Position numbers and translations under genes: made by a program
Shown: positions 5,139 to 61,109 of the stretch, one piece after another
How the letters are laid out: each line of letters starts with the position of its first letter
Position numbering within the stretch: position 1 is the stretch's first letter
Assembly (NCBI GenBank): GCA_051294905.1
Contig: CM119372.1
Span: 15,874,001 to 15,938,000 of the forward strand
Reading direction: 5' to 3'
Origin: Botryllus schlosseri
Taxonomy: Eukaryota
DNA: 64,000 nt
Notes under the pieces: model-generated
Database searches by the model: none
Seen by the model: only the letters and a program-made list of their open reading frames with translations
Told to the model about the DNA's origin: nothing

Positions 5139-5216
5139 ATCTAAACCATACCCAGCCATAACCCCAAATTTTACCCACATGCTGAAGTGTCGCATCCCAT
5201 TATGTCGCATGCTCAT

Positions 5217-8806: not shown

Positions 8807-10321
8807 GATTCCGATCGCCAATTAAGTGATCGAATACTTTACTCCTGAACCGAAGTTTAAAAATACGCTTTATAATGTTCAAGCTGCGAAATGTATACGG
8901 ACATGAGCGATATATGCTGCTGGAATTTGCCAAATACCTTGAGGACCGAAATACGGTACATAGGCAGTAGAGTGCTCACTTGTTAACTAGGAGATCGTAT
9001 ATATTTATTGCAAACTCACGAAATATATGAATTACTACGCCATGATTAGACATCATTAACTTTAAAAAAGGTCGCTCCATATGTTCGATCCAGGTTCTCT
9101 TCCGCAGACTTTTAGCTCGGCTTACTGACAGACTTGGCTCCTAAATGTACCACATTTGAGTGAGGTCAGCAATGAGGAGCTCAGATGTAACTATATACGA
9201 CAAGTAGGCTACAAGATGATCGTGTCGCGTAGTCTCTCTCTGCGATATTAACAAGCTATAATGATGTGAGTTACGGAATAATACAGAGCCGGTTTGAATT
9301 GAAAATGCCACCGATCGTGATCTCAGCTACAATTCCGTTCGTGAATACAACAATATGTAACTGGTCGATGCCTCAAACATATAGTTTCCTTTCTATCAGT
9401 GATAGTATTTATATCCCTTCCCGACGAACCATATATGTATTGTGCGCAACTTTGTTGTTCTTCTAAAATGTTGAACATTCATTATTCAACTTGTGATACG
9501 CGCCATTCAATAATATGTATCCTGTTAGTTGTTCAATTGACGAAGGGCGTCTTATATGCTAGGATTTGTTTTTCTCTCGTGTTTAGGTTAAAAATTGTTG
9601 TGAATCACCGGGCATATTGATTGTGCGTAGTTTAAAAGAGCTAGTATACGTCCAATGGTAAGAGCAATGAGGATGCAAGACTTTCACACGGAAAGGTGGA
9701 TGAGAATGTAAAGTAAATATTGGTTGAAACTGTTTCGTATTTATTACCATGCCACCAACACGAATAGGATAGCAATGGGCCAGGGAGCCCAAAATAAGCG
9801 GTGTTGCAAGGTTACGGGTCGTTCGTACATGTGATTGGATCTTTCAGGTAATTTAATTAGCTCACGGAAAATCGCCAAGCAGACGCACGTGATATGGAAT
9901 TTATAGTCCAGACGATCTGGGATTAAGATTTTAAATATCGATAAACGGATGTATTCTCTAAAAGAGCATATGTATTAACAGTTTGTATCGATTGGAACAT
10001 AAACTGAGATTAGAGGTTCCAAACTCCTGTCGAACCACAAGAGTAAAGGTATGCGAATGACGGTAGTCATCTCACCTACATATTTTAATCTAGCTCTACT
10101 GATCGCGGTACAGCAGATAGCTGCGGTAGGACGTATTATCACAATTTACAATCTTGTTCGATGGCACTTCTATCACTAAGTAGTTTCCATTAATATGATA
10201 TATATTGAGTATATTTCCACTTACTTGCAGAAAGTTACAGTATTTCGTTTTTACTCGGGATTCAGACAAATTATATTAATCATTGAATCGTTTCACAATC
10301 GAAAGCCAACGGACAGTCGAC

Positions 10322-13300
10322 ATGAGGATGCTAAACCTTGTAATGGTGTTAACTATTGTATTCTTGGGAATCGCGGTACTGCAGTCAGAAGGTAGGTGCT
10401 CTTATGTATATCATGTATCTAATATAGTGGAGCGTCATGTATTATACTTGTTTAATGAACTACTATTTGCCATCAAAGGTATTCGTGATGACAATATACG
10501 ACTCAGGTGATGTAGGATGTTTGAGATATAGTTGGACTGTGATACTATATGTTCATGGCTCATTGATCATGCTCACTAGGTGTCGGTTACCAATTATCGA
10601 CCTCTATGGTGATTTATGGGCCTGGGTAGTGGTACGGTACTTTTCGATTTTAGGAAGAAATCATAGACGATATTTTTCGCACAATACGGTACTAACTTGC
10701 GGTATATAACAGAAACGTGCGGGGATCGTTATCATACCTTTAGTTTCGCCAACGTGCTAACAATTGGAAAAGACGATTCCGAATGTTTCCTAATTATTTC
10801 TGAAGTATCTCTGTTCACATGCTAAGCTCTAATTATACAAATGTTTTGCCGACGACCTATGCAGGACGGGTGCATAGCCCGAATGTGATATGTAAGCTGT
10901 CTATGGCAAATACAGATTATACATAACGATGACACGCGATTGATCAGATTTAATAACTGACATTTATATGTATCAGGGATAGTACTAACCATTTAATATC
11001 ATTTTGCTCGTAATCCTAACTTCATTTGGTGATTCGCGTTGGCAAAACAACGGTGTTTGCAAGAGAGAAATGTAGTTCGTAATATTTTGCTGGCATCTGG
11101 TAGAATATTTCACGAGAGTCATTTCGCACTGATACTGAAAAGTTATTAGGTTATACAACTTACAAGTCAAAGCAATCTTGTATGTTATCGTTCACATTCA
11201 CATGGTACCATTTAGGCCACAGTTTTTATTCGTTTGTGTTGTGATATTCATGATGTTTTTCGACTACAATGGTCATTTACACCAGGCCGATATTCTTTAT
11301 TATGATTCCGTATCTGTCGGATTTTAGCACGGCCTACTTCTAGGCTATTTAAGACACCACTTACTCGGATAAGATGACGAGGAGCAGCCTAGATAAACCG
11401 CCAAGACCTAAATAGGAATATTGGTATCAACCTCTGTCGCACTCGAACCCGATGGTGTTGCAGCTGTGGATCATACAAATACACGCTATCTCGCCACGAC
11501 GCCACGCGGCCACTCAGTTGCCAGCGGTTCCCAACGTGGGCGGTATCGCCCCAGTGGGCGATTTCGAGAAACAAGGGGGCCAAAATACTAAAGGGGATGA
11601 CCTAAGGGGCGGTTGTGAAGCGAAAATGTTAAAACGACCTGTGAGATATATTTTACTGATTGGGTCAAGAAAAATACGTGAACACGACTTATTCTGCATA
11701 TGACACGAAAGTTGACTAAAAAATGGTCAACTCAACTCAACCGGTTTCCTGAGCATCTATACTCGGAAAATGACCTTTTTTGCCAATTCACCAGCGATCA
11801 GAGTTGGGTGAATAGATTTTCCGTATTTTCGGATCCAAAATATTGGGGTGCGAAAATTTGTGTCGAGCTGGATAAGGGGACGATGATTCGAAAAAGGTTG
11901 GGAACCACTGGTCTACACAGTGGGCTCCCAAAAGTATGATATTTTCAAATATGCATTTTTACATTTCGGATCGGTCATTTTTCGCATGTTACAATAACTC
12001 GCGACTCCATCAAGTTATTATAGGTTTTGCGTGAGTCACAGACGTATGGTGTTTGCACTTCGCAGTATGACGTCATTGGTTCGCACAATTTCATATCTAT
12101 TAGAGCGGGGAGTCGTGGGCGGTAAAGACTATAGCCACCGGTTTTCAGGCTCAAAGTCGGCTGTATTAGCTATACGCATTTATTTCTCGTATGGAACCAC
12201 CATTTTCTGGCGGGAGAAGGGAAACATATTACGCAGAGGCTACAACCAATACATTCATTTAAAAGCTCCAACTATGCTCAGCCCTCTTATTACTTACCGA
12301 GGAGTTATTTGGGCTTACCTACTAAAGCGCGATTTTGATGTTGAATATGCCGATGTGATATTTTTGATGCGCCGCAACGATACGGCACGATGTTGATGTG
12401 GTACCGTTAGTACGTATGGAATAAATTGAAGTCATCACTCACGATATATCTAAATCAGGGGTCGGCAACCTTTTGCTAGTCGCGGGCCAAATTTCGGATG
12501 TACAACCTTTTGGCGGGCCGGATTTTTTCTTAGTACTATATTTTACGCTCACTTCGGTATATTATCCTACATTGCTGCAATCTCAATCATACCAATCCGA
12601 AGACACATGTATTTACACTTCAACGACACAGAGTAATTGTGACAATTGACGCAGCTTGCTTTTTGAAAGGTTTTCAACTTCTGGTAACAAGTCAGATGAA
12701 ACAAGAATCAGACCCTATTCAAAATGGACGTCCGAAATACGTGATCTTAGCTTGCTCTTCGTGAATTTCATTGTTCAAAACTATTTGTTCACGTGCGTTC
12801 GTGCTTCCAAAAATCGATGCAATTTCTTTTGCATTACTGGTCAAGCTGGGATAAAGACCAATTTCAAGAGCGTACTCTTTGTCAAAGTCATGCAGCGATA
12901 TGCTCTTTGTATGAAATTTGTCATTCAATTCAACTGCATCGCATTTCAGAAAGGCTTATTTGAAATTCTCAGGCAATGGTATTGGCGTCCACATTAAACA
13001 GAGTACCGAATAGTCAGAATTCATTTTGTAGAGAAGGAATGTCGGAAAAGCGGGTGAATATTCAGTACGGTAGTTAAATTTCGTATCACAGTTACAAATG
13101 TAGTGTTGGTACTAGGTTTTCTATCCTCCAGTATAGGAAAGTGAGCATAACTTTCTTTGTACTGTTGACATTTCCAGAGTCACAGATTTGTTTTGAATGC
13201 GCCTCAACATCTCATGTATGTAGTTGTTTTCCCCCTGAAGTTGCAAGTTCAATTTGTTCAGATGTGACGTTAAATGTACCAGAAAAGCAAGATGAGATAC

Positions 13301-16300: not shown

Positions 16301-19017
16301 AAGAACGATGCAGCCTCGTCTCAATCGTTATCTTGTATTCGAATATGCACTCAACGATCAAGTTCAAGTAAGCAGAATAGATGTAGAGGTTTGTTTGTTT
16401 TGGGGTATTCATGGTGTTTGCCGACTACTATGGTCATTTACACCAGGCCGATATTCTTCTTATTTTTCCGTAACTGCCGACTTATAGCACGGCCCACCTC
16501 TAGGCTTTTGTAAGACACCGCTGCCGCGGATGAGGTGGCGAGGAGGAGCCTAGGTAAATAGTCGCGAATACCTTCAATGCAATCTTAATCGTAATTAACG
16601 ACTGCTAGATTTTGCGATTGATTGCATTGATGCAGTATAAAAGTCACTTGTCTGCTGCTGTGATGCGTTTACATGCAAAAATTCCGATATCGAATTAAGG
16701 ATTAAATTTTGTCACTTTAGCAAGTGGGATCTTTCAAGATTTCTTCCATATGATCACTTATTAACACATAAAGAAAGTATGTGTTCATCAAAGAACGCAA
16801 CCACAACAGCATTTGTTTCTGTTTATCGACATGTGGGAGATGGTTGAATAATATATCAAACACAGAAATGACTTCGCTTAACCGACCGCTTATTTGATTT
16901 GGTCATCATGATCATTGTCCAATGTCCATGTCCATTCGCGTTCATAAATACAATCACTGGATTGAATTAGATATTAGATACAAAGGAACATCACATATAT
17001 TATCATATATATGTCCGCTTTATTGAATATGGTATTGCTTTCACTTATCCTCGCTATACCTACCAATGTTCAGCTTGACTGACACTGGGAATATCATCGC
17101 TTTTGTTTCCATCTTCATTGCGGAACGCATTCTATCGACCATGAGCGATGCCCACCGCAACTGCATAACTCTTGCGATATGCTTCGTGCCGCTTACAACG
17201 CGATGAGTGCGCTACTTCAATACATTATAACACTACCACAATCCATTTCATGTACCGCGGATACCGAGATACTGAGCGGTTGTCCATTGAAATACGAAGG
17301 CGAAGGGAACATAACACATCACGTTGCAACCGGATTCAATTATTATTAAAGTGGTTAATTGAATTATATAGATAGACTGAAGGATATGCATTTACCGCAG
17401 TCTTGTATAGCTATATAACGTGTAGACAGATTTCGATAGTTTCGATAAGCTAACTCCAAATTATCTGCACTGTTTACGGATCATTTACACGCAGTGCCTG
17501 ATAGCAGCAGAATAACGCTGTCAGTAATGCGTTGTTAGTAAACTCGCACCGTCACTTTAGCGATACCGCACTAATAATTTTGTAATACTGGCCGACAGCG
17601 ACCAGGATAATCCCAATAAATATGTGTGCGTGTTGTTTTTACAAGCCTTTACCCGTTTACCGAGTACGCGCTACACAAGACGACTCGCACGACATATACA
17701 GCAAGGTTAGGACCTCCGCATTGAGTTAAACTTTACTTGAATCGTTTCACGAATTTGATAAATGCTGTCAAATCCCGTAACAAAACTGCAGCATTAGTCA
17801 CATCCTGCTCGTAAACACTGTCATTAATTGGCCTACTGGGTATTGCTACGGTACACTACAACGCATGTAATCCCTATTTGTATATATCCAGGAAGACTGT
17901 GTTTTCCCACTACTTATCAATTTATTATTAACAATTTCATCATTTCGTTACACCAGAAGACTGCGATACCGTGAAGAGATAGGAAGGTGTCTAAACGACT
18001 TGGAGTATTCTTTGAAATCAGACATCCACCTGCTAAAAAGTGGGTAAATCGGTAGTCAAGTCGAAAAGATGACCTTTTTTGGCATCACATCAGGCTTTCC
18101 AGTACAAATTTCAGAATCAGCAGTTTTCTAGTCCGGTTGTTGTTTGAGGTATTCATGATGTTTGTCGACTACAATGGTCGTTTGCACCTGGCTCATGTTC
18201 GTTATTTTTGATTCCGTAGCTGCCGACTTGCGGCACGGCCCACTTTTTGACTTTTGTAAAACACCGCTTACGCGGATAAGGAGCCTAGATAAATCTCCAA
18301 CACCTAAGTAAGAATTCTGGAGTTGACCTTAGTCGGACTCGAACCCACGACCAATCGGTGTTGTAGCTGTAGATTAAACCACTACGCTATCTCGCCACTT
18401 CTATTCCTGTACTCTGACTTTTGTCATTTCTAAAAAATGTCATTGTTTCCGGATTCCGAAATATGGTAACCCTAAACTTAGTGAGATTCCAATTCATACG
18501 GAGAATATTATATTTTATAGCACCGCATCAATCCGTATCATCCTTGAACATCCTTGAAAAGTTTGGTGACCGATTGAACTCAAGTTTTCGTGAAATTTTG
18601 TTCTGAAAACGTGACGACGTGACGATGTAATGTTAATTCTAATACCATTTATTTAAGAACTGATCAAATTGTAGTCAACGAAAAATCCAATGCCCACAAT
18701 ATTTTCCTATACTATGTACTGTAGGCTACGATGGGAGTACGTGCACGCGGGTTAGTAACAGTATTGCGTACCCTAACCGCTATTCGATCTGTAACTTCAA
18801 AAATCCCCGTACTGATATTATTGTGGTGTGATTTGACTCCAGTTATTTAATGGATCATCGTACATACAATAATACAGTTTTCCATCTTATTTTCTGCAGG
18901 TCGGGCACGATCAAGATACGCCCTGTTGACGCGGATTTGTCCGCCATATTGCAAGACAACATCTCATCTGCATCATTGCCATCAGAAATTCATGGGGAGG
19001 AGATCTCGGAAATGTAG
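10322..19017 (+). CDS. Gene A: multi-exon orphan secreted protein precursor (signal peptide, basic core, acidic C-terminal tail); middle exons uncertain
   Basis: Exon 10266-10391 (ttcag acceptor, ATG at 10322) encodes signal-like MRMLNLVMVLTIVFLGIAVLQSE and ends G|gtaggt (phase 1). Candidate exons: 10865-10891 (GRVHSPNVI, |gtaagc, phase 1-1); 14093 to ~14175/14182 (LDNRDAQREWRLGVLHILRNVSIRPAKQ, donor ambiguous); 15543-15574 (SSKHRNKKRF, phase 0-2); 17957-18043 (RLRYREEIGRCLNDLEYSLKSDIHLLKSG, only open frame, phase 2-2); terminal 18900-19017 after a strong tttctgcag acceptor (SGTIKIRPVDADLSAILQDNISSASLPSEIHGEEISEM*). Confidence 0.6.
11229..11511 (-). mobile_element. tRNA-derived SINE, copy 1
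   Basis: Minus-strand head GGCCGCGTGGCGTCGTGG (A-box-like) and GGGTTCGAGT (B-box); colinear with copies 2 and 3. Confidence 0.8.
11522..11910. mobile_element. hAT-type MITE (CAGYGGTTCCCAA ends)
   Basis: TIR CAGCGGTTCCCAAC...GTTGGGAACCACTG; no TSD recovered. Confidence 0.6.
12456..14047 (-). mobile_element. Deleted hAT (Buster/SPIN-like) transposon with transposase C-terminal remnant
   Basis: TIR CAGGGGTCGGCAACCT; perfect TSD ATCTAAAT. Minus strand ~12640-12930 reads IASIFGSTNAREQ, then after a frameshift MKFTKSKLRSRISDVH...LLPEVENLSKSKLRQLS, typical of the hAT dimerisation region. Confidence 0.85.
16389..16558 (-). mobile_element. tRNA-derived SINE, 5'-truncated copy 2
   Basis: Matches the 3' part of copy 1; (CAAA)n tail, seen as GTTTGTTTGTTT on the plus strand. 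Confidence 0.8.
18136..18398 (-). mobile_element. tRNA-derived SINE, copy 3
   Basis: Colinear with copy 1; B-box GGGTTCGAGTCC on the minus strand at about 18335-18346. Confidence 0.8.
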
Positions 19018-19330
19018 GACCAATATCCACTTTAACCAAGTTGTCGGAGTAGATCATCTTGGTCTTAAGCAATTGCCCCTACTCCCCATTCATACATGTC
19101 GTTGAATATTCAAATTGAATAGGTTCATTGTCATTACATTTTGACGCTGATTTGCCATGAATAGATGTTTGCGTGGAGACACAACACCGTGTATGTGAAT
19201 CAGATCACGCAAGTAGGCGTACAAATCAGTAAACAAAATTGGTTCTCGGAATCAGTCTTTCGACGCAAAGGACACTGGGAATGACGGCACACATATTCAT
19301 ATCTGATAGGCCTAGATTTATTATCTAGGG

Positions 19331-21663
19331 CAGTGGTTCTTAACCTTGCTCCCAGCGCCCCCCAGGGGGCGCTGGCGATTTTGAAGGGGGGCGGAAACGC
19401 TCAGGGGGCGATATGAGGGGCGCTGGGCTCAGGGGGGCGGTATGGGGGGCGCTGGAGAAAAATGGCTTCGCAGTAGATGATGTGGTGATAGGACATATCC
19501 TTAATGAGTATTCAGAGCAAATTAACACCGAAAACTTCGTTATATATAGCCTTAAAAGTACATATAGGTTTAATTGTCCATGGGCGCCTAAATGACTTGC
19601 ACCGAATGTTCCTGTCTTGGCAATCTGAACCCCAGAACACGAATTCCATCTGGCGGGGAAAAATTATATGCCAGTGGAGAAATACCAATTTGAAATCGTG
19701 TGTGTCTCTTAGTTTAGTACGATTGGGCGACAGGGATATTCCTGTTGGGCGATATCCCTGTTGGGCGATTCTATATTTTTTGATATTGCAGACAGGAGGT
19801 CACGAAATAGCATCATGCAACGAAGTCATATTAACGGGTTCGCCCGCCCGAATATGTTATATTAGGCTTACCATATTTTGGAAATCAAAAAAGAGGACAC
19901 TTTTTCAGAAATTTGCAACTTGCAAAACCGGAGTAAAATTCGCGAAAACCGGTTAATATTTCCAACTTTGTGATCGGTTGACTAAAAAAAAAAAAAAAAA
20001 AAAGGTCATCTTATCTGCTCTCAGAGCTCAAATTACCGTTTTTCTCTCCACATTGCCAGGTGGTTGACTAAAAAAAAATCGTCTTTTCGCTCAGCGCTCA
20101 AATCACCGTTTTTCACTCCGAAATACCAGCCGGAGCGTCACTTCTGTGCTAATTTACGGCATATAACTCGCAATTTGCTCTAAATCTTACCTAAAATTTC
20201 AAAAAAGAGGGCAAAATCTCAAAAAAGAGGACAAAAGGGCGTCCTACGAGGACACTTTCAAAAAAGTCAAAAAAGAGGACAAGAGGACGTATGGTATGCC
20301 TATGTTATATTAACTAATATATTATTAGTTACGGGCCCTACAGTTTCCAAGACACCTCACAATGTTCGCTTCGAGTTTTGATGAGTCTGCGCACACTCAA
20401 CAACTCACTGCGCTGACCCTTGGACAACAGTGCGTAACGACTAAAAAAATGTCATAACTTCGGATTTGTTGTTAGCAACGTAGATTTTCTGTGCGCAGAG
20501 ACGGTGTCAGCACTGCGCACGTGCGCAGCTTTGAGGGAACATTGCATCTCACTCAGCTCTACCGGTGAATCTGGTAACGTGAGCAGAGAGGACAAGAAAT
20601 TGATAGCAATATATTTGCAATCCCCGGTCTTACTGACCGATCTTAGCATGAATTATCGAAAGTTTTTGCGCTTCGCACTGGCTCGCTAAACAGTACAACT
20701 GATTCCGTGGCAAAAGCGAACAACGCGATGGGGGCGGTCGGTTTATCACCTTATGGGAGCCCAAGACCCAAGTTTTTCCGGGGGCCCGACGAAGTGACGT
20801 TTCGTTTCTGCCAACGGGTATACGCCCGAAGATGTATAATTATTACTGAGGGGTCCTACCATTTCAAAAACACATCACTCAGCTCTACCGGTAAATCTGT
20901 TTACGTGAGCAGAGAGAGGATAAAAATTGATCTCAATATTCATGCAATTCCCGATCATATTGACCAATTTCAATCATTAATTAGTGAAATTTTCCGCGCT
21001 TCGCGCGTCTAGGCGAGAGTAGCTGGCTCAGTAAATGGACAGTTGGACACCCAATGTAGATACCTAGTATCAGCAAATAGCGGACAGCCGAATGGGGGTC
21101 TGGGGGTGAAGTCCCCCGGAAGTTTGGTTTATCACCCGATGGGGGCCCAGGGCCAACGTTTTTTGTTTGGGGGGGGGGCTGACGAAGTGCTGTTACGGCC
21201 CTGGTAACGAATAATTTTTCCTACGGGCACGCCCGAATATGTTTAATTATTACTTACGGGCCCTTTATTTTCCTATACAACAGCTCACTCAGCGCTACTG
21301 GTAAATCTGATTACGTGGGCTGAGAGGATAAAAAGTTTATAGCGACATATATATATGAATTACCACCTATTCATTCATGCATTATAGAAGATTTTGGTAC
21401 CTAGGGCTAGCAGGCCACACAAACTTTGCTGACCATCGAAATCACGCTATGGGGTTCGTGGGGGCGAAGCCCTCAGAAGTTTGGTTTATCACGCTATTGG
21501 TTCGCAAGGCAATCGTTTATAGGGGGGGTCGACGAAGTGCTGTTACGGACCTCCCTCTTACTCATTGTCTTCATTACATTCCTCACAATATGAAGTTGGG
21601 GGGCGCTGGAGCACGATAATTTTTGAAAGGGGGCGCTGGACGAAAAAAGGTTAAGAACCACTG
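19331..21663 (+). mobile_element. hAT MITE family D, copy 1 (GC-rich ends, composite interior)
   Basis: TIR CAGTGGTTCTTAACCTT; perfect TSD ATCTAGGG; highly similar to 56803-58361. Confidence 0.92.
19863..20302 (+). mobile_element. MITE family E (TAGGCTTACCATAT ends, GAGGAC repeats) nested in D copy 1
   Basis: Perfect TSD TGTTATAT; absent from D copy 2; second copy at 32577-32967. Confidence 0.85.
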
Positions 21664-36859: not shown

Positions 36860-39800
36860 ATGGATTTCGCAAAAAGCAGATATCGAAAGATAAGTACAAA
36901 AGTCGAGTCAATATTGATTTTAAAAATCCCAACTTATATCTTTATGACTCTAGTAATAAGTATCAGAGGTATGTAAGGTGACAGCCGCTAACCGTTTGTT
37001 TATCTCCGATTATACGATTTACAAATAATGGGATCATCACTCACACAAAATAATATACTTGCGAAATATGTGGTCAGCTTTGCTTTACCGTGATCTGGAT
37101 GTGGTTACTTTTTGGTTTGTCTAGTATTTGTGTTAAAATAATCGCATATAACCTGAGTTGAAAAAGGAACAATATCAGGGGAATGATTCTCCGTCGCTAG
37201 AATTTTTTCTCCAGCCATTGTCCATTATGAACGATGTAGGCCAGTATATATACATATATATTTATATTTCATATCGGCACATATGTTCATCGCATCGCAT
37301 AAAAAGGTCGGTTTCCCTTTCGTTCTTAGCTATAATTCCTTCACCAAATCGTAGTTGAAATTTCGATAGATGTAACATAAAGACCATAACTGAAGTGTAA
37401 CACCATAGACCAGGGGTCCCATGCACGCAACCCGCGGGCCGCATTCGGTCCGCGAGATCATTTTGTGCGGCCCACGTCGCCATTTTGGATTTCGAAGTAT
37501 TCGACAATATTTAACCGCCGCATATCTGTTTTTTTTTATATTGAAGAGCTTAACATTCGCTTTAAAACTATTAAAAAACTTGAAACTCCTCATCAGACTT
37601 CGCTATCATATCACTTTCAAAAGTTACTACGCGATGGAAGATCAGCGATCACGTCACATTATCTGTTCATGATGATAGAGCAATGACCCGTTGATAAATT
37701 CGTGACTGAAAATTGTGATTTGTACTTGGGACGTTTTGCGACGTTTTGCAGAATTACTCGAGCTCGAACTCGAAATGAATGGGTGATAAAATAAGAATGA
37801 CTCTAGTTGAGTCCTGTCAAACGTTACAATTGGAGAAGGACTTATGACCCGATCGCCGTGACTTGGTACAGCCACGCACTCAACAAACTATCACACTGTT
37901 ATCGGAAATAGTAATGTATCAAAAGGCCGTAGCTTAAGTGGCGTAGCGTATTTAGCTGTCTCAGCAGGTCGGTATGACAACCATTTGCATTTTGTCATCC
38001 CCTTGCTGTGTAGTTACTTATTTCCTGTATAATCTTAGGTCTCTTTATCCATGTGATTATCGCCTATTAAAGGTGGCGAGTAAAGTAGTGGTAGCCTACG
38101 CTCCATTTAGCTGTAACAGCAATAGATACTACGACGATCGGACATTTATATTGCTATGGCATATTATTCAGTATATTCAAGTTGTTGCTGTTGATCTGTT
38201 CCAATATTCGAAGGTAAATCTAACGCTGATTTAATTTGACTTTGGTAATGATATGGTCAATTACCTATAGTTATCAGGAGAATGCCCGTAACCCGGATTA
38301 GGCTGTATAATACTGCTCCAATGCTTTGATATCACGTCACACTTTGTTAATTTTTTAAATAATCCATAGCTATAAATGTGCACTTCAAATTTCCGCTGTA
38401 GCTGTCAAATTATAACGCGACAGCTTTTACGGTGTCACGATTCATTTGTACAGTCGCGTGGTGTCTGTAACTACTTATTTTGACAGAACAATGCCAAGTA
38501 ATCTACAACAACAATTTTTTTCAAATGTTTAAAAATATTATTTTTTCGTGCCAGGCGTGAATTCACAATAGTAAATCGTATTTTCCTAATTTGTGCCGAA
38601 TGTCAGTCTACAAGGTCCCGTCAAATAAGCCATACTTGGAAATATATTGAATCCCCAATCATTGGTGCTGCGGTTCGCGGCGCCATCAAAAACTAGGAAA
38701 TTGGCCCGCGAGCATATATGAGTTTGAAAACCCTGCCATAGACTACTGAGCAGTGGTTCTCAACCTTTTTGTCTTCGCGGACCCCCTCAAGTTTTAGTTC
38801 AAATTTAGCTCAATTATCGTGCAACCGTCATCTATCTTTTGCAAATATAAATTGAAGGCTAGTGTTAAACAGCAACGAGATGACCATTAGTGAAAATATT
38901 ATTATACTATATTTAGAAATATGGGTGGACTTTTATTATTTCGAAAAAGATTCTGCAGCTGAATTTCTTATTTCTTGAAATATGTGGTCCTGTCTTGAAA
39001 ATTCACGCGTTCGATTCGAAATGAACGAGAGCTGAAAATCTATTTTCACAGAAGTGGGTGGCGGCGAATGTATAATATTAACGCTTGACGCTTCCGACCA
39101 CACCTTTGAGCACGGCCGCAACAAATATGGCGCCAAAATTGGAAAACAGATTTTTCAATGAAGTTATCACTTCCAGACTAGGCATTTTTATATAGCAGCT
39201 CATCTTCAAAATTTTCTGGAATAGTTGTTATGTATATCACAGGAGAAAATAGAATCCGTGATGAGGTTTTAATCGCTTTTTTTAGACTGACTAGAAAAAA
39301 AACTGTTTTAACAAACCTCAACAAAACATTTTTAAACATCAATATGTTTGTGTCAGTAGACTATTGGCAATTTGGCAATTTAAATGATTTTACACACTGA
39401 GATTTTTAATCTCATACGGCCATTCTGTTGATGTGCTTGCTTACAAATTAATTCTCGGTCATTTTGAATAATTTAGAGGTTTCGCTGGCCCTCTGAAAAT
39501 GCTTCGCAGTCCGCCAGGGGTCCGCGGACCCCCGGTTGAGAACCACTGCTATAGAGTTTCCTCGTTCCGTCATATAGAGCGAGGTGTCACAGTGACGTAA
39601 TGGGTTCGGTTTTTAAAAGCGCTCGCTGTCACGCCGGGTATGTAGTATTGTTGCTAACAGCCCGAAATCCTGTCTTCAATACGGATTCCCAAAGCATATT
39701 GTTGTTTCTCTTATTAACCGGGTTTACAGCTGCCCTGATACCAACAGATCACATGTCCGTATTCTACTATGCCGTTGACGTTGTTACCGAAATTCTCGGA

Positions 39801-40558
39801 GATCTAAAAAACATAACTACGGCGATAGGTAACTATGTACGTCGAGGTTTAGAATGATTGACGCCGTTTTATTGCCTAAAATCGATAGTACGCTATTATT
39901 GTTAAGCAAAAGTGAGAAATATATACGTATAACGTGAGCAGACATTGGTTTTCAATCTGGACTAGTCTGACCAATATTTTTCGTAATATACGTATGCAAG
40001 TGTGCACTGTGCATACATCGTGGAAATAATTTGTGATTCGTGAACAGGGCGCTCACGAGGAATTCTCACATATTGATTTGACAGCATTCCTTTTTATACC
40101 TGTAGATTCTGCACAAAAATCGAATGAAAGTGTCGAATTACAGCTGTAAAACGTAGTATTGTGATGTGCTTAACGAGTCATATCTGTCTACCGATTACTA
40201 CTCAAATCTTTTGTATTGAATGATAAGTGTAAAAGCTAGCCTCTGGAAGCATTTTCAGTCAGTAACACAATACAACCAATGACATGACTTTCGCACAATT
40301 TGAAGATGTTATCACGTCAACCAGATAGTAGTTACAAGGTATAGCGAGATCTCCACAGAGGATAGGCTCAAAGAATTATTTATATATATACAATTATACG
40401 TATTATACTGCATTCATTAATGCTGGCGCTGTGTAGTTCCGCTATATGACTCCATCGTAGTCGAAAGATGTCACGACAAAGTATTGAAGAGTGACTTCGA
40501 ATGCTTGTTCCAACAGAACAAAGAGCAGCATACGCGGCAAACTGTGAAAGAATACTGA
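36860..40558 (+). CDS. Gene C: four-exon orphan secreted/N-anchored protein, probable distant paralogue of gene A
   Basis: Exon 36860-36968 MDFAKSRYRKISTKVESILILKIPTYIFMTLVISIR, G|gtatgt (phase 1). Microexon 37215-37235 (ttttctccag|AIVHYER|gtaggc). Exon 39730-39828 (99 nt, only open frame phase 1-1, ALIPTDHMSVFYYAVDVVTEILGDLKNITTAI|gtaact). Terminal exon from 40437 or 40461, both in frame: (PLYDSIVV)ERCHDKVLKSDFECLFQQNKEQHTRQTVKEY*, TGA at 40556-40558. AATAAA near 40788. Confidence 0.55.
37411..38735 (+). mobile_element. hAT MITE family A, copy 3 (in an intron of gene C)
   Basis: Perfect TSD CCATAGAC; lacks the ~280-bp internal insertion seen in copy 2 (4307-4590). Confidence 0.85.
38751..39548. 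mobile_element. hAT MITE
   Basis: TIR CAGTGGTTCTCAACC; degraded TSD CTACTGAG/CTATAGAG. Confidence 0.75.
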
Positions 40559-40855
40559 ATTGTATTACAGCAATCGCCATAAACAGTATGCAGTAGCCTA
40601 CGAACAACCTAGAATACTGTCAATCTAGTTATCATTTAGTTCAGCGGTTCCCAACCAGAAGTGACTGCTCCCAACTTCAAGTATCACATCAATGGATGGC
40701 CGTCAGAGCTAAACTATCGTACTCTGCAAACTCATTTCAATTTTTAATAAGCCATTCAGCCAACGGAATGATGCATAGGCCTATTGAAATAAACATTCTG
40801 CGATATAAAGATGAATTGTTGGAAGTTGAGGAAAAGTTAAAGAGATGAAATAGAT

Positions 40856-41114
40856 CAGTGGTTTTCAAACTGGGGAGGGCGTGAAAGCGTCTGATGTGGG
40901 GCGCGAAGCTGCGGTTAATATTCTTATTGCTCTGTGTATAGTCCCAATTTCACATTTGAGAATTCTCTCATCAACAGTCATAACCTTCCATGCAATCAAA
41001 CTCTCCGCTGGGATTGCCAGCATTCTGGTTACATTTTGTGATGTGACGATAAGGGGGCGCGAAATTTTTCACTATCACAAAGGTGTCGTGTTTGAAAAAG
41101 TTTGAGAACCACTG
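40856..41114. mobile_element. Short hAT MITE between the 3' ends of genes C and B
   Basis: CAGTGGTTTTCAAACT...AGTTTGAGAACCACTG; degraded TSD AAATAGAT/GAATAGAA. Confidence 0.7.
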
Positions 41115-41446
41115 GAATAGAATAAATCAAGAATAGTAACTTTTGCAAGTATATTCCTAATCCGCCCAACGGGTTGAAACCTCTTTATCTGGTCGATTAT
41201 CTTTATTGGCGTACATATCCACAATTCCACACAGTATATGATTTTGCTGTCATCGAAATCACAATTTTTGCCGTTTACTCTAGCTTGCAGTTAATATTTG
41301 CATAAGATAGATGGAGGCAACATGATATTTGCGGTAAATTCAACCTACAACCCAAGGTCGGGGATGGGCCTTGACGGACTAAAACGGGTCTGCGGGACAA
41401 AACGGTTGAGAACAACTGAACTGCGAATTTCCACTCCGTTATTATG

Positions 41447-42299
41447 TTATGAATAATATGTTGATGCCCCGCATAAGCGATCGCAAGCATGAATTTCTGA
41501 AAATCTATGAATGAAGCAAGCTCATCTTCCATATAGTTTATATGCCATTCACATGTCCCAATATGGATATATCGCCATATTTCACGAGAGAAAAGAAAAC
41601 AGCAGCAGTTAGAACAACTGGTGTCGCATCATTCCTATATAGTTATAGCATAAATTACAAAGCAATGAGTTCATCTTCGTACAAGAGCCCACGATAAAAT
41701 AATATTCTCTTACTTTTCCGTTCGCGCCTCGTTTGAAATACAAGGCAATCTTTCCGATTGCGCGCGCGGCGACAGTAGTTGGCCTGGCATGCACTTTTTA
41801 TCAAACGAAAAGCGTGCATGACTAAACAAAAAATGGATTAAACAATAAACGACATATCTACCTATTTACACCTGCGTTGGGTATCATTTCTGATCGACAA
41901 AAAAAATAGATAAACAGATATGCATCATTTGGTATTTTGATATATTCGCGAATTATTTGAAGGCCGTTGCTTCTGTTCAGAATCAGGTTAATACATTATA
42001 GTTGACCGAGCTTAGAATGTTAAGAATATTACAGGACTGCATCATTTCGGAACCAGTTATCCGTCTTTCGACGAAGTATGAATTCTAGTCAGCCAATACT
42101 ATCGGGAATTTGAGTATGGGTCTATAGCTCAAATTACCCCGAGCAATGAAAAGACCATTTCAACTGAAATTCCAATCGTACATAGGTAGCTTATATTCTT
42201 ACCGTTTTGTCTTGTACTAAATGAGCTGGCACCTACATCATCCAGGACATGACGTAATACCAATAAAGACACCGCTAAACAGACGAATGCCATCTTCAT
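41447..42299 (-). CDS. Gene B: three-exon secreted cationic cysteine-rich peptide precursor (84 aa)
   Basis: Exon 1 42299-42203 MKMAFVCLAVSLLVLRHVLDDVGASSFSTRQN G|gtaaga. Exon 2 41821-41714 (ttttttgtttag acceptor, 108 nt, phase 1-1) VMHAFRLIKSACQANYCRRARNRKDCLVFQTRRERK |gtaaga. Exon 3 41496-41447 (attttcag acceptor) KIHACDRLCGASTYYS*. All introns are GT-AG and phase-consistent. Minus-strand AATAAA near 41202-41207. Confidence 0.7.
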
Positions 42300-44169
42300 T
42301 GTTTTAGAGTGAGGGTCGTGAGAGGATCAGATTAAAATAAAAAACACTACACCTGTACGATGGTACAATAACATTTTCAACAATATCCAAAATTTCAACA
42401 CCGTAACTGTTATGCAAAATAGTAATTATAATGACGACTAGATACTAGACATATCTAAATATATCATGTACTTGCCTTATCTTTGCTATTTTATGAACGT
42501 TGGAATTATCTGGTGTAGCGTAGCGGCGAAAAATGGAATATTCTAAATAGATTCACCCCTTTAAAATTGACTTCAAACATTCACCATGCTGGTAGCAGAA
42601 AGGTTGCGCCGTATTTCAAGGGTGTTTCCAACTGAAAATTTATCAAGCATTGGGCCCTGGTGTTCTACAGGTCTCCCCCCACTTATACATCGGAAAATTG
42701 TTACAACGATACCTCTCTGATTTCAACCCCAGGCTAAAATGATTGGGTCTGAATTTCTGACAGCTACGTCGTAATATCTGGTGGTGTGACTACGGTTATA
42801 CGTTGCCTTTCATGCTATATGAGCTCAACGTGTTTCCACCTTTTTCGCTCTTCGCCATTTTACAAATAGCTTCGTATTATGTAACAAAAATAGTTTCATA
42901 TATGCATCCCACAATTCCATTTGTAGTTAAATCCATCGAACGATTAAGCATCTCTTTCACTCGGATACAGAGAGTTAACATCAAAAGAAGAACCGTTTCC
43001 CTTGCTACGGTGAAAATAGCACTGATATAAATGCGATATTAAGTAAGTAGATAAGCACAATTGACATATGCTAAATATTTGTTTGAATGGGTATGATCAA
43101 ATAGCAATCGATTTAATATTTTGAAGCATGACACGATCAGGTGAATAAGGGTGATCAAGTACGCCACATCTATTTTATATCAGGATACCTTTCGGTTAAA
43201 TGTTATCTCCTGGTTCTAAAGTCGGCAACTTGTCATATAATCAAATTTAATATTCACAATAGACCTGGCGTAGATGATGAAAAGATCGATTATTTCAACA
43301 CAATTTTGACCGATAGAGTCAGCGAATATCAGCAGATAATATTTTGCATTTTCTGAAAATAAAAATCCTTATAGCAGACTTTGCTGATGGTAAACATATA
43401 ATGAAGATATGGGGACAAGTAGTTGAACTCAGACTGCACCAATACAATTCGAAAATATAAGCGGTTATTATTTTGCATCTTCTACATTTGAATCCCAATT
43501 TGAAATTCCCGAAAAATAGGTTAATGAGCTGAAAGAATCTACAGAATATTAATAATATTATTATTATTAAGTGGCGACGTTTATGTTTCCGGCCTTGTGC
43601 GTCACGGACAATTGCGTTTTCTCTTTGATTTAAATCCACGGCAATAGAAGTTGAAAGGTCAGTTTTATTTTCAGGTGAACTCGGACCCTTTATTCCAATT
43701 AAATGCCAAGGATGCCTCATAATATAGCGTAAGAGTTTGATCCTCTGCTCGTTCGGCAGTTTCCTGTCAACACATCCCCGACGGAAAAAATTCTCTCGCA
43801 CTCATTAAACATGTGTCTGTTGTTTGAACAGCTGTATCGTTATGAAAATACCGAAACATAGTCATTGGCATACTTAGATAACAGACATTGCTATAATCTT
43901 CCTCCCGACAATGCATATGCTGAGTATCATCCGATGTTTATCGCTAGGAGATAATTTTCAGTTAGGCCTACTCAGATCAAATCAGCTGCAGGTGTGAGCG
44001 TGTCACTATAATCGTCAAATCAAAAACTTCACCGTGGACTAGACATAGCATGATCAAAAGATGCTTGATGCCATAAAACCCCAGCTATTCAATATAGCAT
44101 TGACCATGCGCCACCGAAATTCAATTGATTGTGAACCCCTTCTTCAGGTTTATCGGTCGGCTTTTGAAT

Positions 44170-45010
44170 TCCACTATGGATTATCACTGGTAAAGTAAAC
44201 GCTACCAGTAACCCCATCCTCGTATTTCAAATTTTTAGTTCACTATCTTGTACTGGCGTCAGTGAACCCAAATTGAAGCCATAGAAATGTAATACCCGTT
44301 TTCGAAATTATAGGTGGGAGTCACACCATTTGAAGTGCAGTCAACACTTGTTGTGTGAGAACTGGAGACCTAAGACCTTTGGTAGGGAAATTCAATACAC
44401 ACCAATAAACAGCTTCGCGGTACATCAGTCGCCATGTGGCTTGAGCAATGAACAAAACGCGATGCGTGCTGAGCGCGGTCTCGTCGATAGTTCTCGGAAA
44501 ACAAATACCGGTTCCCTGTAACTTCCTAGTGCCGGAGAAACAATGACATGCATACAAAATTTAAACCGCAGTACTGGTACTGCTTGAACGTGATATGGAA
44601 ACTGAATTTCTGTTTGCTGGCATATGGTAATCTTTATGTCAAGGTATTTTCAGTTTTTCATAGTGCAACTTTCTTAATATAATCAAATGCTTTTCCGTCC
44701 AAAACATGGGTCGCGAAGGGCATCGATATGGATTGCGAAAATGTTTACTTCAAGTACCCTGCACAATTGTTGATGACACGGTTTAATTTACGTAGAACTT
44801 TCCGCAAATTAGAAAATTATATCTGCCCTTTGCACGATTTCTGCTGCTACACGCCTGACCTGAAAATAACTGGCACCGATGGTACTCGCAGTTTTATTGA
44901 GATGCAGGACACAACGTTGCTGCCAGCACCCTCTTGAAAAATCTCTATGTGATGAGTTCTAGTCCTGGTACCGAAAAAGAAATGTCAGAGCCTTTCATGC
45001 CCCGCCCAGA
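44170..45010 (+). pseudogene. Possible heavily decayed DDE transposase (Sola-like)
   Basis: Fragments in the expected order: CGLSNEQNAM, TEFLFAGH, LRRTFRKLENYICPLHDF, LYV...PFMPRP. Recalled resemblance only; many stops and frameshifts. Confidence 0.35.
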
Positions 45011-46151
45011 AGGAGCTTCGCTCTTTTGAAAATGATAATGACGCGAGCACAATTAGCTACTATACTGATTCTGGGAACGAAGCTGATAAGCATGTGTTAT
45101 GACAAGTGAAGTCAGTGATCCAGGGTCTGCCGATGACTCTCAAATCCCTCGAGGTTCAGAATAAGCGTCTTACGAATTGTAATACTTGTATGAAAGCGGA
45201 TAATTTTCCGCTGGATGCTGTTGGGGAATTTGTGAATGATAATGGGACTGAGAATTGTTTGGCTGGAGCCGTTTCAGATTAGTTTTGGCATCATCGTCTT
45301 GGCCAGTGCTTCTCAACCTTTTCCAGTTCGCGACCGACCCCCTTTTAATGCAAATTTTATTGTGCGACCAAAATGAGATATGACCGAACGAATGAAAAAT
45401 ACAATGATGAAAAAAGAAACAATATTTGCTATGCATGCGAAAATGGATATTATCAGATAAAGTCGTGGCTTGATCAGACCCATGCTCACGAGCTCAGCCT
45501 GGCAGACCATGTTACTTAGTAGGCCTATCACTACCAGGAACATCGCAGTATTCCTTCTTCATTTCAATTCTTTGGTTATCCAGCCCTCTGCAGACAGCCT
45601 AAACCTCTCTTCACCTTGTATTCCTCGTCTGATGTCATAAAATCAATGAAGTGTGACGACGTTATGAACTCCCCTAAAATGCCAAAGTTTGTGTTGATGC
45701 TCGAACGATGAGGAATTACACAGAGCGCCGTTTGCGTCATAGTACATTGCACACTGAGACGACTAAATTGTTGGGGCAGAATAGTTTAGAGCAGTGGTTC
45801 TCAACTTTTTTTTAGACACGCCCCCCTTTATGATAGTGAAAGCGGTGAATTACATTGTTAACACATGTTGCTAAGTAGATGCGTTATTATTAGGCTGCTC
45901 CCTTGCTCCGCGTGGCTTGGTATAATATCCTTGCTGTTTTGCTAGCTTCGCTGGCAGGTCCGCGTCGGCCGAGTGTATGTATTAACAGCATGATAATTCC
46001 GACGCAAATTACATTCCTTGAACACAGAGACCTTCTTGGTACTAACCATGAACTAAAAAAGACCGGTTCACGGCTAACTTAAGTAAAGAAAGATATAGTG
46101 CTCCAAATCTCGCAGAAATATCGATCTTCAGTTTCATCTTTCATTGTACGA

Positions 46152-56314: not shown

Positions 56315-58699
56315 CCGTAATTTTCCATGTATAATGCGCAAATTTCGCCGATTTTTCGCCCTAAAATAGGGGGGTGCGTATTATACATGGGTACAGCAAG
56401 CCTTGATTTAATCTCCCTCGATCAAAAACTTGAAATCACACCTTTCTTCATGTTTGTTTCCAATCACGCATCACCTCTAGCCATCGTGCCCCGTAACTCA
56501 TATTACAGAGTGTAACGCGCTGCCAAATATAGAAGCGCGCTGCCAATTAACAAAAAGCGTGTTGCCAATTAACGAGAGTCGTCTGCACTGCAGGCGATCT
56601 CTTGCTGAGTTAGTTTGCCGTTTGTACGCGAGCGAAATTAGGTCGCTGGTTGCTACAAGCGTGTGAAGCAATCCTTGCTGATTCACTGCGTCAACGACAG
56701 GCCTTAACAATCGCATACACATGTGCGCAAGATATAATCGCTTGCGTAATCAGTCGCATATCCAACAGGACTGGTGCGCCCGACGCAACCGTTGGCCTAA
56801 GCCAGTGGTTCTTAACCTTGCCCCCAGCGCCCCCCAGGGGGCGCTGGCGATGTTGAAGGGGGGCGGAAACGCTCAGGGGGCGATATGGGGGGCGCTGGGC
56901 TCAGGGGGGCGGTATGGGGGGCGCTGGAGAAAAATGGCTTCGCAGTAGATGATTAGGTGATAGGACATATCCTAAATGAGTATTCGGAGCAAATTCACAC
57001 CGAAAACTTCGTTACATATAGCCTTCAAAATACATATAGGTTTAATTGTCCATGGGCGCCTAAATGACTGACACCGAATGTTCCTGTCTTGGCAATCTGA
57101 ACCCCAGAAGACGAATTCCATCTGGCAGGGAAAAATTATATGTCAGTGAAGAAATACCAATCTGAAATCGTGTGCGTCTTTTAGTTTAGTACGATTGGGC
57201 GACAGGGACATTTCTGTTGGGCGATATCCCCGTTGAGCGATTCTATATTTTTTGATATTGCAGACAGGGGGTCACGAAATAACATCATGCAACGAGGTCA
57301 TACCAACGGGTTCGCCCGCCCGAATATGTTTAATTATTGGTAACGGGCCCTACAGTTTCCAAGAAACTTCACAATGTTCGCTTTAAGTTTTGATGAGTCT
57401 GCGCACACTCAACAACTCACTGCGCTGACCCTTGGACAACAGTGCGTAACGACTAAAAAAAGGTAATAACTCCGGATTTGTTGTGCGCAACGTAGATTTT
57501 CTGTGCGCAGAGACCGTGTCAGCACTGCCCACGTGCGCAGCTTAGAGGGACCATTGCACCTAACTCAGCTCTACCGGTAAATGTGTTTACGTGAGCAAAG
57601 AGAGGATAAAAATTGATCTCAATTTACATGCAATTCCCGATGATATTGACCAATTCAATCATTAATTAGTGAAATTTTTCGCACTTCGCGCGACTAGGCG
57701 AGAATAGCTCCCTCAGTAAATGGACACCCAATGTAGATACCTAATAGGCTATCAGCAACTAGCGGACAGCCTAATGGGGGTCTGGGAGCGAAGTCCCCCG
57801 GAAGTTTGGTTTATCACCCGATGGGGGCCCAGGACCAACGTTTTATGTTTGGGGAGGGGGGCTGACGACGTGCTGTTACGGCCCTGGTAACGAATATTTG
57901 TACCTGCGGGAACGCCCGAATATGTTTAATTATTAATTACGTGCCCCTTATTTTCCTATAGAACAGCTCACTCAGTGTTACTGGTAAATCTGATTACGTG
58001 GGCTGAGAGGATAAAAAGTTTATAGCGACTTATAAATGTAATTACCATGCATTATGGAAAATATGCAATTACCATGCATTATAGCAAATTTTGGTACCTA
58101 GGGCGACCAGGCCACACAAACTTTGCTGACCACCAAAATCACGATATGGGGTTCGTGGGGGCGAAGCCCTCAGAAGTTCGGTTTATCACGCTATGGGTGC
58201 GCAAGGCAATCGTTTTTACGGGGGTTGACGAAGTGCTGTTACGGCCCTCCCTCTTACTCACTGTCTTTATTACATTCCTTACAATATGAAGTTGAGGGGG
58301 GCGCTGGAGCACAATAATTTTTGAAAGGGGGCGCTGGACGAAAAAAGGTTAAGAACCACTGGCCTAAGCAATCGCATCTGTAATTGTAATAGGCCTCGTG
58401 CGCAAGATGTCGTGTGTCGCTAGCCTGAACTATCGCGTCGCCGGCCTCGCAGGCTTAGGCTACTATCTATTCTCGTTTAGAGACAATGTCGTTAATTGTA
58501 TTATGATTAGCGATGGTTATGTCATGATAGTTCGACAGTGACATCGCAAAACAGAACAACATCGTATACTAAAACACGACTATTCATGTACTGCGAATGC
58601 AGGGTGCGTACTATGGGTACAGGCTTTTCCCCAGAATTTACACGCCATTTTAAGGATGCGTATTATACATGGGGGCGCACTATATTCGGAAAATTACGG
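56315..58699. mobile_element. Tc1/mariner(pogo)-like MITE
   Basis: TA|CCGTAATTTTCC...GGAAAATTACGG|TA; the flanks rejoin into the family-D module sequence. Confidence 0.82.
56803..58361 (+). mobile_element. hAT MITE family D, copy 2
   Basis: TIR CAGTGGTTCTTAACCTT; perfect TSD GCCTAAGC. Confidence 0.92.
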
Positions 58700-59871
58700 T
58701 AATCAGATTTACCGGTAGAGCTGAGTGAGGTGTCTTGGAAACTGTAGGGCCCATTAGTATAATTCCGTAACATGTTATTTCGTGACCTCCTGTCTGCTAT
58801 ATCAAAAAATATAAAATCGCACAAACGTAGGAAAAAATATAAAATCGCCCAAACGTAGGCTTTTAAACTAAGAGACGCACAAGATTTCAAATTGGTATTT
58901 CCTCACTGGAATATGATTTTTCCCTGCGGGATGGTATTTGTCTCGTGAGGGTAAGATTGCCAAGACAGTATTTCGTATAGGCTATCTAACGACGTTTTCG
59001 GTCAACATAAGGGCAGTCCTGTTCGGCCAAGGTTTTCTCGCTTGGTGCGTGGTGGCGCGGTAAAGGCTAACGCCGATATGCCCAATGCCCATTTCTATAA
59101 ATCTTGCGCATTTTTTCTTGGGGATGATGAGTACCCAAAAATGAAGATATTTGGCAGCATGAAATCACGCCTACAGAAAATAAAAATTGAAAAAGATGCT
59201 AAATTTTCCAAAAAATACTCTAATTTATGCTATTTCACGAAATAATTTTGAGCCCCGTTCGAGCTCGCCCCCTCTTCATTGGGAGTTTGGCGAGCGGCAG
59301 TTATAGTCCTGTCTTTACCTATATCTATAGCTACTGCTCGTTTAACTGGACGTAACGACAGCAGTCTACTCAAGACTTTCCAGCAATATTAATTAAAAAC
59401 TCCCGACTCCAAGCCAAGCTAGTGTACTTTATAAATATAAATTTAAGTTTTTGTCGTAACTCGATTTCTTAATATTGTTTGGGGCCCGCAAGAAGGCTAG
59501 CTGGGGGCCGCGCTTGGGAATCACTGATATAGAATATATATTGTATGTGTGCGTATGTGTAAAACATACGAGGGAAAAAGTTGTTTTCGGAAACACCATA
59601 ACAGCAGATTGCCATTGCGTCGTTTTTCCACATTCACTTCAATCAAATTATGGATTGTGAACCCTGGGTTCGTTAATTGCCCCTGACTAAATTTATGTAC
59701 GCCCAAGTACGTACGTACAAGTACGAAATATATATACATAGCTCAACATTGCATCAGGTAGACCTGCAATGTTCCTCAATCCTCCGGTTTATCGTGGCGG
59801 CTTCCCAATAAATCTCCAGAGATAGCATTGCGAGCTCAGGAATAATATCGCACGACACAGCATAAATATCA

Positions 59872-61109
59872 CTGGACGCCAACAAATGGTTGCGATCTCA
59901 GACACCTTGTCCTCTCCTCACCCGGTGACCTGTGGTGTGCCCCAGGGCTCAGTACTTGGACCGGTCCTTTTAACCTTATATGTAAAAGACATTTTTGAAA
60001 CCTCCTCATTGAACACCACACTGTTCGCTGATGATACTCACCTCCTCTCTTCCGCATCTTCGACGGCAGAGCTGGATGCCCTGACTGGTGACCAAATGCC
60101 CAAAGTCCATGAGTGGACGGCCCAGAACAACCTTTGCATAAACGCCTCGAAATCGCAATTGCTGACAGTCAATTCAAAAAATAACCTAACCGTTAATATC
60201 GCTGGTCAGCCCGTTTCCAACACAGATAATGCCAAATATCTCGGAGTTTTACTGGACTCGAACATGTCCTGGAAGAGTCATATTCAGTCCCTAGAAACTA
60301 AATTATCACCGAAGTGCGTCCTGTTCTACAGCCTTTGGCGCTTCATGCCAGCATGGGTTCTCCTGATACTCTTTAAATCCTTAATCCAATCGAAGTTACA
60401 TTATGGCATCCTCTGTTGGGGGGCTACCAGTAAAACTGCACTCAAGCCACTGCAGAAACTACAGCATAAAGTGCTCCGAATCATAGCTAGGGCCCCAAAG
60501 GGGCCTGGCTGCCCATTCAATAAGTCGCTGCTGAAGAGATTCGGCGTCCTAAACATAGAAGATATGCGGAAACTAGAAATCGCCAAGTTTATGTATCAGT
60601 TTCACTGCGGTCGTTGCCCCGAATATTTCAATGACTTCTTTACCTCTGAATCAAAAGCGCACAAGTACAACACACGCGCGTCCACGTCGTCCAAATATCA
60701 TATGATCGACCGAAAAGATCATCGCTCCATCAAATATGCCGGACCTGATGTGTGGAACAGTATCCCGCCGGCCATCCGACAGTCGACGAGCATGTCCACA
60801 TTCAAGTCGAAATACAAGCAATTACTACTAAATAAATACAGTCCATCCTCAAGATTACCGGACCACGACTGACCTATCGATCTCGCTTCTCATGACATGC
60901 CGCCCTATTTCTTGTCGCTTTCTTTTTCTATACTGTATTCTTTACTTTCATTCAGTGTGCATGCCTCCTCTTTACTACGCCTAGGCCAAGGTGGGTGTCC
61001 GATTCCATTGACAAATCCAAGTCGCTTCGACATCTTCCTGTCTATTCATTGTATCGCATTTTTTGTGGTGTATTGAACTGATAAAATTGCTAATAAACCA
61101 ATGATGATG
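59872..61109 (+). mobile_element. 5'-truncated LINE (CR1/L2 group) including 3' UTR
   Basis: RT ORF followed by a pyrimidine-rich 3' UTR, AATAAA at 61092-61097 and a short (TGA)n tail. Possible 6-bp TSD ATATCA at 59866-59871 and 61110-61115. Confidence 0.85.
59886..60872 (+). CDS. Reverse transcriptase C-terminal part (ORF2) of a 5'-truncated CR1/L2-group non-LTR retrotransposon
   Basis: Uninterrupted 328-aa ORF with GVPQGSVLGP, FADD and KYLG motifs and the C-terminal EIAKFMYQF...H.YNTR...GP.VWNSIP block. Confidence 0.93.
   Translation: MVAISDTLSSPHPVTCGVPQGSVLGPVLLTLYVKDIFETSSLNTTLFADDTHLLSSASSTAELDALTGDQMPKVHEWTAQNNLCINASKSQLLTVNSKNNLTVNIAGQPVSNTDNAKYLGVLLDSNMSWKSHIQSLETKLSPKCVLFYSLWRFMPAWVLLILFKSLIQSKLHYGILCWGATSKTALKPLQKLQHKVLRIIARAPKGPGCPFNKSLLKRFGVLNIEDMRKLEIAKFMYQFHCGRCPEYFNDFFTSESKAHKYNTRASTSSKYHMIDRKDHRSIKYAGPDVWNSIPPAIRQSTSMSTFKSKYKQLLLNKYSPSSRLPDHD

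Follow-up and report, generated by a model that had tools for sequence, protein, structure and literature searches.

According to the available text of PMC7024374, tunicates had by 2020 yielded only one cysteine-rich family of antimicrobial peptides (AMPs). The same text describes turgencins A and B of Synoicum turgens as cationic, Cys-rich, helix-loop-helix ascidian AMPs of 35-36 residues with an amidated end, the motifs CXMAC and KKXGG, and six cysteines (spaced x3, x4, x7-8, x2 and x3) that form the disulfides C1-C6, C2-C5 and C3-C4. In a Ciona screen, 79 of 244 short secreted peptides were set aside for containing Cys (244 minus 165, from the accessible part of PMC7387483).

Gene B, a predicted gene on the minus strand of the 64-kb window (the whole stretch of Botryllus schlosseri DNA that was analysed), would encode a 60-residue mature peptide with five cysteines. 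Like the turgencins, as far as they are described in the part of PMC7024374 at hand, it is ascidian, cationic and free of adjacent cysteines, and its exon 2, modelled alone (pLDDT 70), may also tend toward a helix-loop-helix. For turgencin A, the sequence given in that part of PMC7024374 yields by count a C2-C3-C4 spacing of x4, x8, equal to that of Cys20-25-34 in gene B, and a count by eye also found A-C before the first Cys and basic residues after the second in both. In contrast to the turgencins of that partial source, gene B has five cysteines, x14 in place of x2, 60 residues and no glycine for amidation; only the A-C of CXMAC is present, and KKXGG is absent. Because the six-Cys frame, both motifs and the amidation are lacking, gene B is not a turgencin. 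The exon of gene A, a probable paralogue in the same window, also differs from turgencin A, with x3 rather than x4.

The core of ShK follows the outline C-x4-C ... C-x3-C-G, which the predicted gene B peptide resembles, being likewise small, helical and Cys-rich. However, the ShKT domain and aurelin have six cysteines, paired C1-C6, C2-C4 and C3-C5 in the available text of PMC6409789 and PMC10608444, whereas the last of these is missing from the five of gene B, and a gap of 23 residues with an additional Cys inside it would be required. Since six cysteines are required, gene B is not a ShKT peptide; exons 2 and 3, scanned separately, did not match Pfam ShK. In insulin and relaxin, a B chain with two cysteines precedes an A chain with CC-x3-C-x8-C; this family was rejected, as gene B has no adjacent Cys pair, its three-Cys part comes first, and its exons had no Pfam hit. 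The Kunitz domain, a six-Cys fold with a beta hairpin and the core G-G-C ... N-x-F, was also rejected: gene B shares only the C-x3-C-G tail, has no G-G-C, and its exon 2 is predicted to be helical.

Halocidin and dicynthaurin of Halocynthia aurantium are linear helices whose chains are joined by a single disulfide (PMC10608444, available text). Compared by that description, they offer a precedent for the use of an unpaired Cys, although gene B instead has five cysteines; the odd number, which had been proposed to allow a disulfide-linked dimer, is compatible with an inter-chain disulfide of this type. The linear AMP class of Ciona is Cys-free by definition, most members having an anionic C-terminal helix (accessible part of PMC7387483), and botryllin is a styelin-like protein of 158 aa with a KHK motif (accessible part of PMC9966394). 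As these sources describe them in part, Ci-MAM, Ci-PAP, the styelins and botryllin share with gene B a precursor of similar size in which a cationic helical region comes after the signal peptide, whereas gene B differs in its five cysteines, three D/E in the mature part, and the absence of both an anionic helix and KHK. Secreted cationic Cys-rich peptides are a familiar kind; compared partly by description, the predicted framework matches none of the families tested, and gene B is not a member of any of them.

Predicted structure of gene B and its surroundings

The gene B model comprises three predicted exons that together give 255 nt and an 84-aa precursor. Exon 1 (42203-42299, minus strand; 97 nt) begins at an ATG with A at -3 and ends at a phase-1 GTAAG donor; its first part (42299-42228) would encode a 24-aa signal peptide ending in V-G-A, and the remainder the first eight mature residues. 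Intron 1 (41822-42202, minus; 381 nt, phase 1, GC 0.35) extends from GTAAG to a T-rich TTTAG. Exon 2 (41714-41821, minus; 108 nt, phase 1-1, GC 0.50), predicted to form a helix-loop-helix, contains Cys20, Tyr24-Cys25, Cys34, Phe37 and RRERK (41729-41715), and is followed by intron 2 (41497-41713, minus; 217 nt, phase 1, GC 0.35), from GTAAG to TTTTCAG. The coding part of exon 3 (41447-41496, minus; 50 nt including the stop TAA) provides Cys49-x3-Cys53 and is the least supported exon. Each donor thus reads GTAAG, each acceptor is T-rich with AG, and the two introns are in phase 1. A probable 3' UTR (41200-41446, minus) contains a repeat element at approximately 41268-41418 and an AATAAA at 41207.

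This is one of a pair of short repeats directly downstream of the gene B stop (40856-41114 and approximately 41268-41418), whose ends are of the inverted-repeat type; one of the pair supplies an alternative acceptor at 41111. Within intron 1, a T-rich acceptor at 41889-41872 (minus) could open an in-frame micro-exon of 18 nt, with a weak donor and a following intron of only 50 nt. The window as a whole is animal-type DNA of approximately 39% GC, and 28% of it is self-repeated. Its only long open reading frame, 348 codons at 59826-60872 (plus), encodes a domain of reverse transcriptase (Pfam RVT_1, E 7.7e-14) and is probably a truncated non-LTR retroelement. A 615-base element at 5214-5828 is 96% self-complementary from end to end, and a long composite repeat that carries nested insertions is present in two copies (19325-21663 and 56797-58361) whose blocks are 87-94% alike; the former copy lies 300 bases behind the gene A exon. 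An Rfam search of 38000-45500 yielded no match.

The original prediction described a gene for a secreted, cationic, Cys-rich peptide whose framework was not recognised. The gene-model test, the probable paralogue and the blank searches, in which exon 2 or its read-through served as query, speak for this description. Homologues of gene B were sought with exon 2 (37-40 residues) or its read-through, and none was found among proteins of 32-104 aa or of 105-2000 aa; a query of 37-40 residues is insensitive and misses distant kin, so these blank searches do not prove novelty. The sole hit among 1.84 billion representative proteins, an 828-aa tandem-repeat open reading frame with no passing stretch, was rejected as an artefact. 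For exon 2, the only Pfam match was to Lysis_col and fell below threshold, at 12-14 bits where 27 is the cut-off; neither the gene A exon nor gene B exon 3 alone had any match. A PDB sequence search gave no match, the ESM Atlas gave no usable hit for gene B and one lead of 0.75 for gene A, pattern matches in metagenome contigs were confirmed in 0 of 499 and 0 of 170 cases, and the gene A read-through found no relative. Among the titles and beginnings of abstracts listed by the literature searches, none described the gene B framework; single-cell marker tables in supplements could include the gene unnamed.

Gene A as a probable paralogue

A probable paralogous exon, termed gene A exon 2, was located at 18900-19013 (plus), approximately 23 kb from gene B. 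It is 114 nt long and of phase 1-1, with a strong acceptor and a GTAGG donor, and encodes C-x3-C (with Tyr before the second Cys)-x8-C, then F, and RRSRK just before the donor. A candidate signal-peptide exon at 10322-10391 (plus) has a phase-1 GTAGG donor; if joined to 18900 over the 8.5 kb between them, it would give a 24-aa signal ending in S-E-G.

The exon 2 peptides of genes A and B are 29% identical, with 10 identical columns of 39 that include all three cysteines, Tyr24, Phe37 and RRxRK. Among 115 candidate phase-1/1 exons, that of gene A was the best non-self match to gene B exon 2 (score 28, against 7.5 for the next). A score of 28 was reached in 7 of 300 simulated windows, and an exon with the Cys pattern and basic end occurred in none of the 300. 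The similarity was equalled in 85 of 20,000 shuffles in global alignment and in 689 of 20,000 in local alignment, where four unrelated open reading frames of 2,261 also outscored it; BLASTP produced no alignment. The predicted structures of the two exons agree in the second helix only, gene A having no first hairpin helix over the Cys pair. The signal peptides are no more alike than their composition gives (1289/10,000), and the DNA similarity of the exon 1 regions is at chance level (490/1,000). With this moderate support, gene A is probably a paralogue of gene B. Its alignment supports the predicted frame of gene B exon 2 and marks RRxRK as a conserved basic site.

The same 8-mer, starting with GTAGGT, is found at the first donor of gene A (10392-10399, plus) and inside gene B exon 1 (42236-42229, minus), and might reflect a shifted donor. 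At 7602-7700 (plus), a strong acceptor is followed by an open frame with C-x3-C-x8-C but without the basic end; no signal exon and no Pfam hit were found for this candidate, which may be due to chance. Just upstream of gene A, approximately 9587-9657 and 9772-9848 (plus) show acceptor- and donor-like ends by eye.

Predicted product and candidate functions

Recounting from the sequence reproduced both figures of the original prediction: the 60-aa mature part after V22-G23-A24 holds 14 K/R (4 K and 10 R) against 3 D/E, and its cysteines at 20, 25, 34, 49 and 53 give the spacing x4-x8-x14-x3. The mature peptide has a predicted mass of 7.1 kDa, a pI of 10.4 and a net charge of +11; 17 of its 60 residues are hydrophobic, Cys excepted. 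The hydrophobic core of the signal peptide spans residues 5-15 (Kyte-Doolittle 3.1), and a cut after V-G-A (22-24) fits the -3/-1 rule, which also allows cuts after 25, 26 or 28. The precursor ends in Ser and thus has no Gly donor for amidation. The best helical hydrophobic moment over 11 residues was 0.669, compared with a shuffle mean of 0.672, and was reached by 49% of 2,000 shuffles.

AlphaFold2 run on exon 2 alone as a single sequence predicted helices at 10-19 and 23-35 (pLDDT 70, pTM 0.40), which would set Cys25 and Cys34 on opposite sides of a turn. A fold search with this model gave a best Z of 4.5, with none of 48,161 chains at 5 or above and only generic helix pairs, and Foldseek gave no match; a homodimer prediction for the exon 2 peptide gave a score of 0.00 and no verdict. 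Dibasic pairs start at mature positions 26, 31, 40, 43 and 44, RXXR occurs at 26-29 and 40-43, RX[K/R]R is absent, and a single XBBXBX-type basic motif is present at 25-30. The proposal that the basic clusters could be convertase sites gained support for RRxRK (mature 40-44), which is kept in the paralogue, and not for the basic run at 26-32, which is not. A cut at RRxRK would yield a chain of 43-45 residues with a net charge of +9 to +11 and three cysteines, plus a neutral C-terminal 15-mer with two, so that one Cys would be left over for a cross-link. Calculated average masses are near 5206 for residues 1-43 and 1660 for residues 46-60, compared with 7104 for the uncut chain.

Our best explanation, held tentatively and short of an even chance, is that gene B belongs to a lineage-specific family, with at least two copies in the window, and encodes a secreted cationic host-defence peptide. 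The signal peptide would be removed after Ala24, and the exon 2 part would fold as a helix-loop-helix in which a Cys25-Cys34 disulfide closes an 8-residue loop. A convertase would then release the three-Cys chain by cutting at the conserved RRxRK, and the spare Cys20 may bond to the neutral two-Cys 15-mer or to another copy. Such a polycation would bind anionic microbial surfaces and damage or trap microbes, like ascidian cationic AMPs. Charge, size, secretion and fast divergence would fit such a role, and we favour it with reserve; an antimicrobial role of the peptide is plausible.

Several comparisons bear on this reading. That amphipathicity is at shuffle level and that few residues are hydrophobic count against it. 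In its favour, the turgencins are a precedent for cationic helical Cys-rich AMPs in ascidians, halocidin and dicynthaurin are one for inter-chain disulfides, and a Ciona peptide rich in Arg and of weak amphipathicity (moment 0.118, +11) killed bacteria with an MIC of 6.25 uM in the available text of PMC7387483. The same text reports that Ciona AMP families keep their signal peptides, whereas those of genes A and B are not alike beyond composition, which also counts against host defence. According to this text, cleavage of frog AMP precursors is possible at RXXR, KK or RR, which speaks for the defence reading, and in the linear AMP precursors of Ciona the boundary is reported to be acidic instead. 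The RRxRK of gene B amounts to a minimal RXXR with dibasic pairs; its departure from the canonical RX[K/R]R and its contrast with the acidic boundary given for the Ciona linear AMPs in that partial source again count against a defence role.

A hormone precursor would account just as well for a conserved basic site of cleavage. The main rival to host defence, in our judgment unlikely, is that gene B encodes a signalling precursor (a peptide hormone, neuropeptide or cytokine-like ligand) in which RRxRK is the convertase site and the product acts on a receptor, possibly as two disulfide-linked chains, with its charge tethering it to sulfated glycans. The sole long run conserved between the two genes is RRxRK, together with Y-C and F, and both the lack of an amphipathic excess and the motif at 25-30 agree with signalling. 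However, neither exon 2 nor exon 3 alone matched a Pfam hormone family, and no C-terminal Gly is available for amidation. Low identity between neighbouring paralogues and a high net charge are more usual for defence peptides, and the 29% identity and net charge of +11 found here therefore speak against signalling.

A more specific proposal, to which we give only a slim chance, is that genes A and B represent a tunicate family not described before, in which a minimal precursor yields peptides of two chains joined by disulfides. A convertase cut at RRxRK, at the exon 2/3 border, would leave a short chain with two cysteines bound to a cationic helical chain with three, and one Cys would stay available for dimerisation. 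If true, this would be an insulin-like logic without shared ancestry, and the product could be a ligand or a defence effector.

The 3' end of gene B and chance expectation

The five-Cys count is the weakest part of the gene B model because it rests on exon 3. It is rather improbable, in our estimate, that gene B is real with a different 3' end, either with exon 2 as the terminal exon or with another acceptor, in which case there would be no five-Cys framework. If intron 2 is left unspliced, the frame stays open for 20 codons to a stop at 41657-41655 (minus), giving 87 aa with three cysteines, the last residues forming a short tail, acidic and hydrophobic, beyond a KR site; the alternative acceptors at 41504 and 41111 would give seven and four cysteines, respectively. 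No clear third exon of gene A was found in the window, so that exon 3 stays the least certain part of gene B, and the gene A exon 2 frame is likewise open past its donor to a stop near 19105 (91 aa, five cysteines). A decayed exon 3 in this gene A tail near 19088 was considered and rejected as weak (633/10,000 at the protein level and 78/1,985 at the DNA level). Against a different 3' end, the second donor (GTAAG) and acceptor (TTTTCAG) of gene B are strong and in phase, a phase-1 donor immediately follows RRxRK in both genes, and the gene B read-through is intron-like in composition (GC 0.34) and has no likeness to the gene A tail (9084/10,000 shuffles).

We regard as distinctly improbable that gene B encodes a secreted structural or matrix-binding polycation (of the tunic, mucus, adhesion or a gamete coat) cross-linked via its odd Cys. 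Its Arg-rich composition and low hydrophobicity would suit this role, as would an odd count of cysteines, which gene B has in both its three-exon and its read-through model and gene A in its read-through. However, the peptide is small and has no repeats and no Gly-, Pro- or Tyr-rich stretch, and nothing positive was found for such a role.

A simple three-exon finder produced signal-peptide models in the real window only at the gene B locus. In Markov-5 simulations, any three-exon signal-peptide model appeared in 10 of 150 windows and one with at least four cysteines in none of 150; this test is supportive, not exact, because its filters were picked after gene B was seen. A GC content of at least 0.50, as in exon 2, occurred in 3.8% of 4,019 unmasked 108-nt windows. 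No repeat elsewhere in the window resembles any of the three exons. Gene B is probably a real small gene. That it is instead a silent pseudogene or chance arrangement, as might be argued from the lack of a homologue for the exon 2 and read-through queries in the databases searched, the 1.07 signal-like first exons expected per simulated window and the self-repeated fraction of the window, is the least likely reading, given the intact frame and splice signals, the simulations, the probable paralogue and exons that match no repeat elsewhere in the window.

Other ATG-hydrophobic-donor candidates lie at 45543 (minus), 28554 (plus), 54541 (plus), 25140 (plus) and 6198 (minus). Those at 45543 and 28554 passed a stricter filter and neither yields a three-exon model; approximately one per window is expected by chance. 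An internal duplication of the gene B exon-intron unit, spotted by eye, found no support: the intron score was reached by 44-468 of 1,000 shuffles across scoring schemes, other splice sites did equally well (4-17 of 88 donors, 32-60 of 1,033 acceptors), and at the protein level 3,030 of 5,000 shuffles did as well.

Genomes of this kind commonly encode secreted Cys-rich orphan peptides, and the surprise is therefore moderate. For the sister group of the vertebrates, a new Cys framework would add a testable scaffold for innate immunity or peptide signalling.
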